64,000 nucleotides of DNA from Octopus vulgaris. Taxonomy: Eukaryota. The translations under genes and the position numbers were made by a program. The notes under the pieces were generated by a model that had not been told where the DNA came from, did no database searches, and saw only the letters and a list, made by a program, of their open reading frames with translations. The stretch covers positions 80,786,001 to 80,850,000 of the forward strand of contig OX597825.1 in the NCBI GenBank assembly GCA_951406725.2, in the 5' to 3' direction. Below are positions 5,109-11,297 of this stretch, in pieces (the stretch's first letter is position 1; each line of letters starts with the position of its first letter).

Positions 5109-6127
5109 AGAATTTTACATTTGAGGTGTTGACAGAAAGGAGATTAGAGATTTTATATGTAAACATGTAATTTTTTTGTATCAAATGTATTTAATATTTT
5201 TTCGCTAACTTGCTTATTCTTACATTTACTCCTCTACATGCTCAAGTTTAAATCTCTTGAACATTAAGAAAGGTATTTCGTGCGGAGTATATCTGTCTCT
5301 CATCTACGTATGTATGTATGTATGTATGTATGTATGTATGTATGTATGTATACATATACATACATACATACATATATATATATATATTTTTTTTTCTAAT
5401 ATATATATATATATATATATCTTAGAAAAAATAAGGTATTCAGAGATGCTTTTACAAATCACATACTTTCATCTACTCTAATAGATTCTTCAGATTTAAA
5501 TTGTATGAAGGGATTTGTCTCTTTTGATAGTATTAGTGAATGGTTTGGGGTGGAGAGAGAGAGGGGGGGGAACAAGAGTAATGTGGAATGTAAAGGATAG
5601 GAAAAGAGAGGAATGGAGAGATAGTGGAGGGAAAAAGTGAGAGAGAGTGTGTGTGTTTGTGTGTGTGTATGCGTGTGTGTGTATGTGTGTGTGCCTGTGT
5701 ATCTGAAAGGAAGTGTTTTGAACAAGAGATAAAGAAAAAGAATGTTTTTAAGTAGGTGGCTGGAACAGATGCTTACTTTGGTTCAGCCAGCTCACCAGTA
5801 GGTCTGAAAGAAAAATGTTTTCAAAGTGAAAAAATGTGTTTTTTTGCTTAATATCAATAGAAAATAGAAGGAAAGAAAGAAAGGAAGAAAGACAGAAGAA
5901 AAATTGTGTTTATATCTATACATAGTTCTCTTGGGGAGATTCAGTGTCGCACAAAATGTTACAAGGCCGGCCCTTTTCGAAATACAGGTACAACTCATTT
6001 TCGCCAGCTGAGTGGAGTGGAGGAAGGTGAAATAAAGTGTCTTGCTCAAGAACACAAAGCAGGACCGGGTATCGAACTCAGGACGTTGCGATCGTGAGCC
6101 GAATATCCTAACCATTATTCCACGCAC

Positions 6128-6413
6128 ACACAGAGACCACATACACATTTAAACACACTCACCCACATAAACATACGCATACTGACACATAAACACATTT
6201 ATACACGCTCACACACACACACACACTCACACACAGAGACCACATACACATTTAAACATACTTACCCACATAAACATACACATACTGACACATAAACACA
6301 TTTATACACGCTCACACACACACACACACTCACACACAGAGACCACATACACATTTAAACATACTTACCCACATAAACATACACATACTGACACATAAAC
6401 ACATTTATACACG

Positions 6414-6440
<27 letters not shown>
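6128..6440. repeat. CA-rich minisatellite, ~103-bp unit x3
   Basis: CACACAGAGACCACATACACATTTAAAC... recurs at ~6128, ~6231 and ~6334. Confidence 0.85.
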
Positions 6441-6455
<15 letters not shown>

Positions 6456-6894: not shown

Positions 6895-7316
<422 letters not shown>

Positions 7317-7320
<4 letters not shown>

Positions 7321-7481
7321 TCACTCAGGCTTGCGAGAAAGGGATGGCCTCCCTTTGCAAATACTCCAAAGACAGAGATATTGTGTTTAGAGCCAGCTAG
7401 AGACGAAGATCTCTTGGGGCTATAAAGCTACAGTAACAACACCCTCCCCAATGTGGTTAGCCATGATAAGATGGCTTCTAT
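7317..7481 (+). repeat. left 165-bp direct repeat
   Basis: CGTATCACTCAGGCTTGCG...GATAAGATGGCTTCTAT; contains TATAAA at 7421. Confidence 0.95.
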
Positions 7482-7755
7482 ACCTTACATTATCGAGCGA
7501 TTACTGTTTCAATCTCATTCTGAGATTTAATTATGCTTACTGTTCGTTTTTCGACATCAGTGGCAGACGCCATTAGAAAAACTTATATCCATTTGCAATG
7601 ACCGCTGCCTGTTGAGTGAGTTCGTTGCCGTTTGTGTGTTTTGTCTGTTTGTGTATTATTATTGAACTGTTGATTACGTTGATGTTGAGTGGAGGTGGTG
7701 AGTTCGAGTGATTTGTTTGAGGTGTTGAGGGATTTTTTTTTGGTTTTTCTTCAAA

Positions 7756-9060
7756 ATGCAAACCCAAACATACGCAGGAGCAGCAAGCAAGGATTTAACT
7801 ACTAACGAAATACAGTTGGAAGACGTCACAATAGAAAATGATATTTTGAAGAGTTACTTCGACAGCTTGAAAAGGGAAGGTGACTGTGTAAGGATTACAC
7901 CACCTGAAGAAGAAGCTAAAGAAGCTGAAAAACGGATAACATACCGAACATGGAAGGTAGATTCAAAGAAAATAGAATTGGCAGAAACTGCCGAGATTGA
8001 ATGTTGTCTGCAGAAACTTGAAGGAGAGCCTACCTTCTATAACAGAGGTAGAAAATTTGCAACAGTTGTTGTCCATTTTAAAAGCGAAGACGATGCGAAG
8101 AAGAACGCTACGCAAATATTAAAATCAGAAAAATGGATTTTATTACCTAGTTATTGTGGGAAAAGAGCAGTTAGAATAAGAATAAGTAAGATTTTGCCAG
8201 AGCTAAAAATGGAGAGAACATTAGCAGCAGTTGTCTTTAACTGCAAAGAAAGTGTTGAAATTTTAAATGTAAAAAGATCTCAAGATGTACAATGGTGGGG
8301 TTATGCAGTGCAGGTTGTGATTCATGTAACCATACCTGATCTGTATAAAATCCCAGAGGAGTTGGTTTTCCCCGACGAGACTCGACTGAGAGTCATGGTG
8401 GAGGGCAGACCACCAGTGTGCTACAAGTGCAAAATAAGAGGACACATGAAAGATGCATGTCCGACTAGAACATTGAACAACAATAAGACAGATGTGGTGC
8501 AAGCGGAAACGGTGGAATGTGTAAACACAGAAATTGCAGAAAGTGGTGAAGAAAAAACAGATGGAAAAGAAGATAGAAAAAGAGCGAGGGTGGAATCACC
8601 ACCTACAGCTCAAAAAAAGAAAAAAAAAACGAAAAATAAGACTATAGAGGAAAAGGATGATAGAATGTACGAAGATAAGAGAATAAAAGAGCCAGAGATA
8701 GAAGAGGAACGTTTATCGATAGAACAAAAGTGGGATAGAAAAGTGTCAGAGAAGTTAAAAGCATGTAAAGAAGGAAGAAGACCAGTAGGAAATAATCTCA
8801 AGGCAGTAATTTTATACATGAAAGATAAAGAAATAGAAAAAAGACTGGCAGGTAAGAAAGGGTTAATAAGAGTTAGGCTAAACCCAGAAATATTTGATGA
8901 TAAAGTAAAGTCGGTGATAGTAGATAAAGAGACATTTTTAAAATTGAAAAGTGTTTTTCCAGGTATTTACATAACGCAATATGTTCGATTCGAGAGTTTG
9001 CCTGCAATAATAGAACAGGAAGATATTTTAGAGTACTTAACAGATGAACGGCCAGTATAA
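7756..9060 (+). CDS. 434-aa gag/LINE ORF1-like nucleic-acid-binding protein (putative RRM-like region, CCHC zinc knuckle, basic region)
   Basis: Only long complex uninterrupted ORF in the window; N-terminal TYAGAA motif, RGRKFATVVVHFKSEDDA, LRVMVEGRPPVCYKCKIRGHMKDAC (CX2CX4HX4C), KKKKKTKNK. Confidence 0.85.
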   Translation: MQTQTYAGAASKDLTTNEIQLEDVTIENDILKSYFDSLKREGDCVRITPPEEEAKEAEKRITYRTWKVDSKKIELAETAEIECCLQKLEGEPTFYNRGRKFATVVVHFKSEDDAKKNATQILKSEKWILLPSYCGKRAVRIRISKILPELKMERTLAAVVFNCKESVEILNVKRSQDVQWWGYAVQVVIHVTIPDLYKIPEELVFPDETRLRVMVEGRPPVCYKCKIRGHMKDACPTRTLNNNKTDVVQAETVECVNTEIAESGEEKTDGKEDRKRARVESPPTAQKKKKKTKNKTIEEKDDRMYEDKRIKEPEIEEERLSIEQKWDRKVSEKLKACKEGRRPVGNNLKAVILYMKDKEIEKRLAGKKGLIRVRLNPEIFDDKVKSVIVDKETFLKLKSVFPGIYITQYVRFESLPAIIEQEDILEYLTDERPV

Positions 9061-9254
9061 CAGAACTGTATTTTAAATGATTTTACGAGTTTTGGGGGGC
9101 TTGTAAACATTCCATATAATTCATTATACATAATTCATTTCATGACATATTTTATTTTATTCTATGTACCCCACGTCCCGTTTTTGTATCGTCCCCTCTA
9201 TTTTTCGGGCCATCGTGCCTATAATAAAGATTTTCATCGCTACCTGGTGGTTAC

Positions 9255-9297
9255 CGCCCGTTGACGAGGGACAACCATCCCGAAACTAGTTCGAGCG
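9255..9297 (+). ncRNA. minimal type-I hammerhead ribozyme
   Basis: CGCCCG-TTGACGA-GGGA caacca TCCC-GAAA-CTAG-TT^-CGAGCG: stem I 5/6 bp, stem II 4 bp, palindromic stem III ACTAGT, predicted cut 9291/9292. Confidence 0.75.
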
Positions 9298-9460
9298 TAT
9301 CACTCAGGCTTGCGAGGAAGGGATGGCCTCCCTTTGCAAATACTCCAAAGACACAGATATTGTGTTTAGAGCCAGCTAGAGACGAAGATCTCTTGGGGCT
9401 ATAAAGCTACAGTAACAACCCCCTCCCCAATGTGGTTAGCCATGATAAGATGGCTTCTAT
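9296..9460 (+). repeat. right 165-bp direct repeat
   Basis: Copy of 7317-7481 with 3 substitutions. Confidence 0.95.
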
Positions 9461-9461
9461 C

Positions 9462-9531
<70 letters not shown>

Positions 9532-9619
9532 GTGTGTGTGTGTATGTATGTATATATATATATGTGTGTGTGTTTGTTTGTGAGTGTGTGTGTGTGTGTT
9601 TGTTTGTGGGTGTGTGTGT

Positions 9620-10880: not shown

Positions 10881-11297
10881 ACCTATTTCTTTACTACCCA
10901 CAAGGGGCTAAACACAGAGAGGACAAACAAGGATAGACAAACGGATTAAGTCGATTACATCGACCCCAGTGTGTAACTGGTACTTAATTTATCGACCCCG
11001 AAAGGATGAAAGGCAAAGTCGACCACGGTGGAATTTGAACTCAGAACGTAACAGCAGACGAAATACCTATTTCTTTATTACCCACAAGGGGCTAAACATA
11101 GAGGGGACAAACAATGACAGACATAGGTATTAAGTCGATTACATCGACCCCAGTGCGTAACTGGTACTTAATTTATCGACCCCGAAAGGATGAAAGGCAA
11201 AGTCGACCTCGGCGGAATTTGAACTCAGAACGTAGCGGCAGACAAAATACGGTTAAGCATTTCTCCCGGCGTGCTAACCATTCTGCCAGCTCGCGGC
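10881..11297 (-). mobile_element. SINE family S3 with tandem duplication of its 3' part
   Basis: ACCTATTTCTTTA(C/T)TACCCACAAGGGGCTAAAC...GACGAAAT unit at 10881 and 11065; GCCTTTCATCCTTTCGGGGTCGATAAATTAAGTACCAG central domain on the minus strand. Confidence 0.85.

Follow-up and report, generated by a model that had tools for sequence, protein, structure and literature searches.

The locus described here lies between positions 7039 and 9563 of the window, that is, of the whole 64,000-nt stretch of octopus DNA that was analysed. On its left side stands a SINE-like repeat (7039-7138, minus strand) flanking the insertion. It is the original arm of an inverted duplication, as 100 of its 100 nucleotides equal the reverse complement of the inverted flank copy at 7221-7320 (plus strand, as are all the following features up to 9460), which likely arose when the end of a cDNA switched onto target DNA. 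The SINE copy to the right of the insertion differs from both of these arms. The left part of a hammerhead-bearing repeat, the retrozyme, runs from 7317 to 7598 and corresponds to unit positions +5 to +285, with 96% identity to the natural unit in a wrap-around alignment. At its 5' junction, at unit position +5, the four bases CGTA (7317-7320) belong to element and flank alike, which confirms in the sequence the 4-nt overlap noticed by the first-pass annotation. A motif resembling the promoter of snRNA genes, a predicted proximal sequence element found with a U1/U2-trained matrix, is located at 7552-7567 (TCAGT at 7557-7561). Nested in the retrozyme is a half-LINE (7599-9231), an ORF1-only Tx1-like non-LTR element. 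Its ORF1 (7756-9060, 434 aa) is open and encodes a CCHC zinc knuckle at residues 221-236 (8416-8463), and its 3' end bears AATAAA (9223-9231), with a 17-nt terminal motif that is present 90 times in G000, the genome searched for copies, motif sites and junctions. The right part of the retrozyme (9232-9460) extends from unit position +298 across the unit junction to about +169 and is identical at 229 of 229 positions to the copy L003. It contains a predicted transcription start at 9236, placed by U1/U2 spacing, and a predicted type I hammerhead ribozyme at 9243-9308 (core 9261-9291, predicted cut 9291/9292). Finally, a (TA)n target tract (9458-9563, unstranded) is joined to the internal 3' end of the retrozyme. 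Two tandem repeats were also seen in the window, one at 6121-6441 (103 nt, 3.1 copies) and one at 10881-11250 (184 nt, 2 copies).

The first-pass annotation had taken the insertion to be one cut-to-cut monomer of about 2 kb plus some 170 nt. When G000 was searched with 9200-9460, however, copies were found to continue upstream into the sequence of 7317-7598 and not into the ORF. The natural cut-to-cut unit is 356-358 nt long in all ten units found (nine of them distinct), the 1.63 kb between 7598 and 9232 are separate from it, and the composite junction 7598/7599 has one match in the genome with up to 2 mismatches allowed, so that a 2-kb monomer does not hold as a family. An 18-nt motif just past the cut occurs at 646 sites in G000 (at most 1 mismatch), a two-unit pattern gives 20 matches, and the longest array seen comprises 2.5 units. 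The median length of retrozyme insertions is near 300 nt, and 53 of 144 segments are longer than one unit. Units in succession within one insertion differ less than the between-insertion median in 16 of 18 cases, and three units, each compared with 60 shuffles, folded as circles better than the shuffles did (z -4.4, -5.2 and -2.1). As the unit is non-coding, lies within 150-450 nt, carries one type I ribozyme and is arranged head to tail, and as its insertions have PLE-type anatomy (internal 3' ends, a tail and an inverted partner), the window repeat is what PMC7229834 calls a non-LTR retrozyme, with a 357-nt hammerhead unit. The retrozyme itself thus belongs to an already known kind of element. 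It is not an autonomous PLE with an RT and GIY-YIG ORF between pseudo-LTRs, its sole long ORF being the CCHC ORF1. A reading of the direct repeats as those of an LTR retrotransposon was ruled out, the repeats being segments of a permuted tandem unit.

The hammerhead core (9261-9291) consists of U3, U4, G5, A6, C7, G8 and A9, stem II GGGA/TCCC, GAAA, stem III ACTAGT and U at H17. It thus has the conserved core and NUH triplet of a type I hammerhead, with U3 replacing C3. Both peculiarities pointed out earlier, U3 and the palindromic stem III, proved to be features of the family: U3 is present in 109 of 109 copies (A8 in 19), and stem III is palindromic in 90 of 104 parsed motifs, with six different spellings across families. 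H17 is U in 94 of the 109 copies and C, making a GUC triplet, in the other 15. Across families the core classes are U3.G8 (68/104 motifs), U3-A8 (33/104) and C3-G8 (3/104). Helices I and II are retained in differing spellings across families, as expected of compensatory change; because the parser demanded both helices, only the stem III palindrome is an unbiased covariation result, and motifs were counted irrespective of relatedness. An Rfam scan of the window gave no match at gathering score, including to any hammerhead model, and a free fold of 9240-9310 did not stand out from its shuffles (z -1.15); the core motif and covariation are therefore what the ribozyme call is founded on. In the youngest subfamily, to which the window copy belongs, the core has U3.G8, the triplet is GUU and stem I contains a C.A mismatch, and its ribozyme may therefore cut poorly. 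A palindromic stem III is what would be expected if the ribozymes pair as dimers (PMC4209133); among Xenopus retrozyme dimers, 8 of 9 are described as giving no cleavage in vitro (bioRxiv 2026.07.22.740005). A further ribozyme-like motif, with another core spelling and A at the cut position, was noted in L018 and L037.

The left part of the retrozyme begins at 7317, which is equivalent to 9296 (98% identity over 165 nt) and thus lies 4 nt past the predicted cut, as had been reported. The first-pass annotation saw in this more than chance, proposing that reverse transcription had stopped at a ribozyme-made 5' end and that the boundary was an indirect sign of cleavage in vivo. We tabulated the 5' breakpoints of other copies in three samples. 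Sample 1 comprised the first 100 listed sites of the 646-site motif and yielded 94 segments (6 sites were inside multi-unit segments or were not recovered); sample 2 comprised all 63 sites of a second motif search and yielded 59 segments, with the window excluded; sample 3 comprised copies longer than one unit (19 distinct). Samples 1 and 2 were picked by motifs downstream of the cut, and copies ending at the cut would therefore be caught. Segments were mapped by wrap-around alignment to the natural unit, the ends of local alignments being uncertain by a few bases. The samples partly overlap and were deduplicated into a pooled set of 158 segments, in which the window's own segments were left out and censoring was applied to 2 segments that stop at a LINE 3' end. 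Counts of motif sites across the cut (473) and after it (646) were dropped as a test, since the two motifs mutate differently.

No accumulation of 5' ends at the cut was found. Ends at +1 to +7 were seen in 3 of 94 segments of sample 1 (hazard ratio 0.60) and 2 of 59 of sample 2 (0.87), while 13 of the 19 long copies cross the second junction, with one end at +3 and another at position -1 of the third junction. In the pooled set 155 passes enter at +7, 9 of them stop by position 355, and the remaining 146 run through the cut. Within 5 nt of the cut 12 ends were observed against 11.4 expected (ratio 1.06, 95% interval 0.53-1.90), at +1 to +7 there were 5 against 7.5, and at the exact junction (356, 357 or +1) 5 against 3.1 (p 0.20), which leaves room for a small surplus there. 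The predicted transcription start shows no pile-up either (5 ends against 8.1 in the pooled set). Splitting the data into plain and head-to-head junctions revealed nothing significant, the plain ones giving 7 ends within 5 nt against 4.2 expected (p 0.15). The hazard of a 5' end is 0.0069 per nt, which means that about 7 of 100 passes end at most 5 nt from any given point; a pure exponential describes the breakpoint distances closely but not fully (KS p 0.048). The cut is absent from the best-scoring windows of the unit. The 5' ends are most numerous at unit positions 222-230 and 165-167, near the initiation sites (best uncorrected p 0.005, not significant after the scan of all windows), and the seeming surplus of ends (3 cases) that sample 1 showed at the second junction was gone in the dedicated long-copy sample. 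Since sister copies do not end at the cut more often than expected, chance most likely placed the truncation of the window copy at +5, where the 4-nt microhomology fixed it. As evidence of cleavage in vivo this boundary falls away, contradicted by the 158-segment sample, and the family-wide measurement takes its place.

The other two components of the earlier proposal, an internal start of reverse transcription and copying across the ribozyme junction, are borne out by the family, the latter by the passes just described. Retrozyme 3' ends fall at two fixed sites in 178 of 195 cases, 99 of them at +165 to +185 and 79 at +217 to +240, and in 114 of the 195 TATA or ATAT follows within 6 nt. Head-to-head pairs include 118 of 204 segments, and 39 of 59 head-to-head joints overlap by at least 1 nt; a flank duplication like that of the window was found at 2 of 204 5' junctions. 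Because the two fixed 3' ends and the head-to-head pairs match the tail and inverted-copy signature of PLEs, we adopt a PLE copying model, and dependence of retrozymes on PLEs has been argued before (bioRxiv 2026.07.22.740005). G000 contains a young PLE family (L323-L328) with an intact 781-aa RT/GIY-YIG ORF, preceded by a second, overlapping frame of up to 479 aa. Its pseudo-LTR carries a minimal U3-A8 ribozyme. Two 3' ends of this family, roughly 38 nt from one another, fall in (TA)n, and the first of them resembles, by eye, that of the retrozyme. However, a blastn comparison of the retrozyme families with 36 PLE loci gave no nucleotide similarity, and this PLE would be a candidate partner only.

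The 1.63 kb at 7599-9231 form a repeat family of their own, with 90 exact 3' ends in G000. ORF1 is 31% identical over 188 aa to ORF1 of the L101 element (E 9e-33), a decayed full-length endonuclease-RT relative, and is thus homologous to that of an APE-RT element, as would be the case for a Tx1 derivative. Its match to the zf-CCHC domain (17.6 bits) is below the cut-off, a word-based protein search for ORF1s of similar length gave no match, and a full HMMER search gave 363 matches, all of them unnamed. For the RT of the relative most matches are also unnamed, the one named match being 'Transposon TX1 uncharacterized 149 kDa protein' (E 1.8e-70, 34%). By these ORF1 and RT sequence matches the half-LINE would be classed as Tx1-like. 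A frame at L101:119-874 resembles a mariner-type transposase. As in HAL1 elements, ORF2 is absent (tblastn of ORF2 pieces against the window half-LINE and 8 other loci found no remnant), the element is multi-copy and it has its own 3' end. A frame of at least 400 aa is kept in only 5 of 25 module copies, while that of the window is open. Many copies of the family are bounded by 14-21-bp target duplications, so that a fixed target site with duplication applies to the family; the window copy itself has no clean duplication at its 5' end, where 12 target bases were lost. This loss and the uniqueness of the composite junction make insertion in place the simplest order of events. Among the sequencing contigs listed none spanned 7316/7317, and no allele without the insertion came to light. 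An intron reading of the insert was rejected, given the duplications, the other hosts and the lack of an AG end.

Among the first 30 half-LINE 3' ends by position (an AT-rich false ribozyme call, L295, was dropped), 22 lie just upstream of retrozyme ribozymes of several families, 14 with a ribozyme core called by script 22-37 nt further on and 8 with the same target heads recognised by eye; the other 8 are elsewhere. The module was found with at least 5 other target families, and one copy has a U2 upstream motif on one side and a complete U2 gene on the other. Longer endonuclease-RT relatives, full-length or deleted (L101, L206, L207, L165), occupy the same site of the window's retrozyme family, and the 3' end of an L101-type element stands directly before U2 +1 in 2 of 25 U2 loci. 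In L228 and L235, upstream of position 1501, the 3' end of a Tx1-like element abuts U2 +1 inside U2 clusters.

The retrozyme targets and U2 both appear to carry, some 58 nt further upstream, the motif that precedes U1/U2 genes. TCAGT lies at -56 to -60 in 20 of 20 U1 loci and 22 of 25 U2 loci. A promoter matrix trained only on U1/U2 upstream DNA has its best site at 244-245 in each of the ten natural units, which is 58 nt ahead of the U2-like start. Its best site lies at -52 to -59 from the start of the duplication in only 14 of 18 retrozyme targets, and the promoter-like motif also forms one arm of a small hairpin. A precedent for such a promoter motif is newt satellite 2, which is reported to use an snRNA promoter (cited in PMC2220036).

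Taken together, we think it probable that the locus is a copy of the 357-nt hammerhead repeat, 1.5 units long and likely made from circular RNA by a Penelope-like enzyme, that was later split by an ORF1-only element and whose 5' edge is near the cut most likely by chance. In the mechanism that we propose, a putative snRNA-type promoter inside the unit would start an RNA about 56 nt before the ribozyme. The two ribozymes of a tandem copy would then pair through the palindromic stem III and excise a 357-nt monomer, which would be ligated. As the genomic pattern of 3' ends shows, copying is primed in AT-rich DNA and begins near +178 or near +224. It crosses the ribozyme junction and ends at a near-constant rate of 0.7% for each base, halting neither at the cut nor at the predicted start. 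In the window, the cDNA probably ended at +5 on a 4-base match to the flanking SINE, 100 nt of which would then have been copied, leaving the inverted duplication. The Tx1-like element, whose target is seen across the family, presumably inserted later, at the predicted start; it would borrow ORF2 from a full-length relative and likely also the promoter of its target.

Copying that ignores the cut site is what is expected of a circular or long uncleaved template. Since there is no pile-up at the start and more than one unit is covered by 53 of 144 segments, a 5' end was usually not close by on the template, and judging from the copies it would be either a circle or a long uncleaved multimer. 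Read-through is a better indirect argument for cleavage than the boundary, because a circle needs both cleavage and ligation; we infer cleavage in vivo in this sense only, as uncleaved tandem transcripts would give an identical breakpoint pattern. A plausible objection is thus that a small number of donor arrays supplied such long transcripts as templates and that the young subfamily has a weak or idle ribozyme. The lack of stops at the cut, the U3.G8 core, GUU triplet and stem I mismatch of that subfamily and the use of uncleaved RNA by the Anolis element PAc in vitro (PMC11167929) all agree with this. The assembled arrays are short, however, with only 20 two-unit matches among 646 sites and none longer than 2.5 units, no transcript start is visible as a pile-up, and compensatory change keeps the helices and the palindrome across families, and we consider this explanation rather unlikely.

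That copying did stop at a ribozyme-made RNA 5' end, with four bases trimmed, so that the boundary records cleavage in vivo, seems to us improbable. The boundary at +5, the five other segments ending at 356, 357 or +1 (3.1 expected) and the small surplus at plain junctions (7 against 4.2, p 0.15) would fit, but 146 of 155 passes cross the site, the ratio within 5 nt is 1.06 (0.53-1.90), the cut is not among the top-scoring windows, and the end coincides with an available microhomology. Still less credible, in our view, is that retrozyme and ORF1 moved as one 2.1-kb RNA, a protein-coding retrozyme cut by two ribozymes. The open ORF in the window, when so few module copies keep theirs, and the missing clean duplication speak in its favour; against it stand the unique junction, the presence of the module with at least 5 other target families and with duplications and the median insertion length of only some 300 nt. 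We therefore retain the retrozyme copied from circular RNA, with a separate element inserted into it.

A broader picture, which we put forward tentatively and think somewhat less likely than not, is that of a parasitic system. It would have three layers: retrozymes with their own snRNA-type promoter, a Penelope-like enzyme copying their RNA circles, and a Tx1-like LINE with ORF1-only dependants, guided to snRNA-type starts by the bound initiation complex and not by target sequence. If true, a Tx1-like lineage could switch between U2 genes and unrelated ribozyme repeats, and the flat 5'-breakpoint curve would be the trace left in the genome by rolling reverse transcription of circular RNA. The nested half-LINE itself points to a class of targets, the predicted snRNA-type starts of ribozyme repeats. 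A 357-nt unit whose genome also contains a young candidate PLE now allows the role of PLE ribozymes to be tested directly.

Several known systems bear comparison with the retrozyme. PAc, which initiates internally at two sites in vitro with an optional tail, shares both properties with it (PMC11167929), and PLEs share AT-rich targets and inverted, 5'-truncated partner copies (PMC8557442), as well as the U3-A8 core variant of their ribozymes (PMC11167929; PMC4209133; PMC8557442). PAc transposition in vitro did without its ribozyme, and the PAc reads described there include no RNA ends at the ribozyme site, much as the retrozyme lacks a breakpoint stop (PMC11167929). Unlike PLEs, the retrozyme has no RT or GIY-YIG gene, and its ribozyme is of canonical and not minimal size (PMC11167929; PMC4209133). 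With metazoan non-LTR retrozymes, whose units measure 350-390 bp in mussels, it has in common a tandem, non-coding unit of 150-450 nt that bears a type I hammerhead, low GC, a short palindromic helix III, a stable circular fold and co-occurrence with PLEs (PMC7229834; bioRxiv 10.64898/2026.07.22.740005). It differs from them in that the octopus copies are mostly shorter than two units, with fixed internal 3' ends and mapped head-to-head pairs, and in its U3 core and snRNA-like promoter motif, its circles being predicted only.

The half-LINE resembles Tx1L in Tx1D, Keno in U2 and Tx1-Mar in its CCHC ORF1 and its fixed site in a repeat or U2, and its relatives have the APE endonuclease, RT, zf-RVT and 14-21-bp duplications of Tx1-clade LINEs (PMC4494074). 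What sets the half-LINE and its relatives apart is their target, the predicted start of several ribozyme repeats of little mutual similarity together with U2 +1. With HAL1 (half-L1) it shares being non-autonomous and encoding ORF1 only, and it differs in its Tx1-like lineage and site specificity (PMC5753468). ORF1-only elements such as HAL1 and Tx1 families targeting repeats or U2 are known separately. A literature search limited to main texts found no paper on Tx1 elements with retrozymes or on a half-LINE targeting start sites, and an octopus repeat annotation, in the passages covered, mentions neither ribozymes nor snRNA.

Two further observations concern the half-LINE family. In L069, L081/L292 and L220 the half-LINEs lie 20-30 nt behind TATA-like boxes and before unidentified sequence, possibly at other transcription starts; these targets have no snRNA-like motif and, where scanned, no Rfam match. 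In other loci (L064/L085/L208, L089/L210, L071/L212, L077, L217, L219) half-LINEs and full LINEs are stacked head to tail as trains in one target site, with a target duplication separating each copy.
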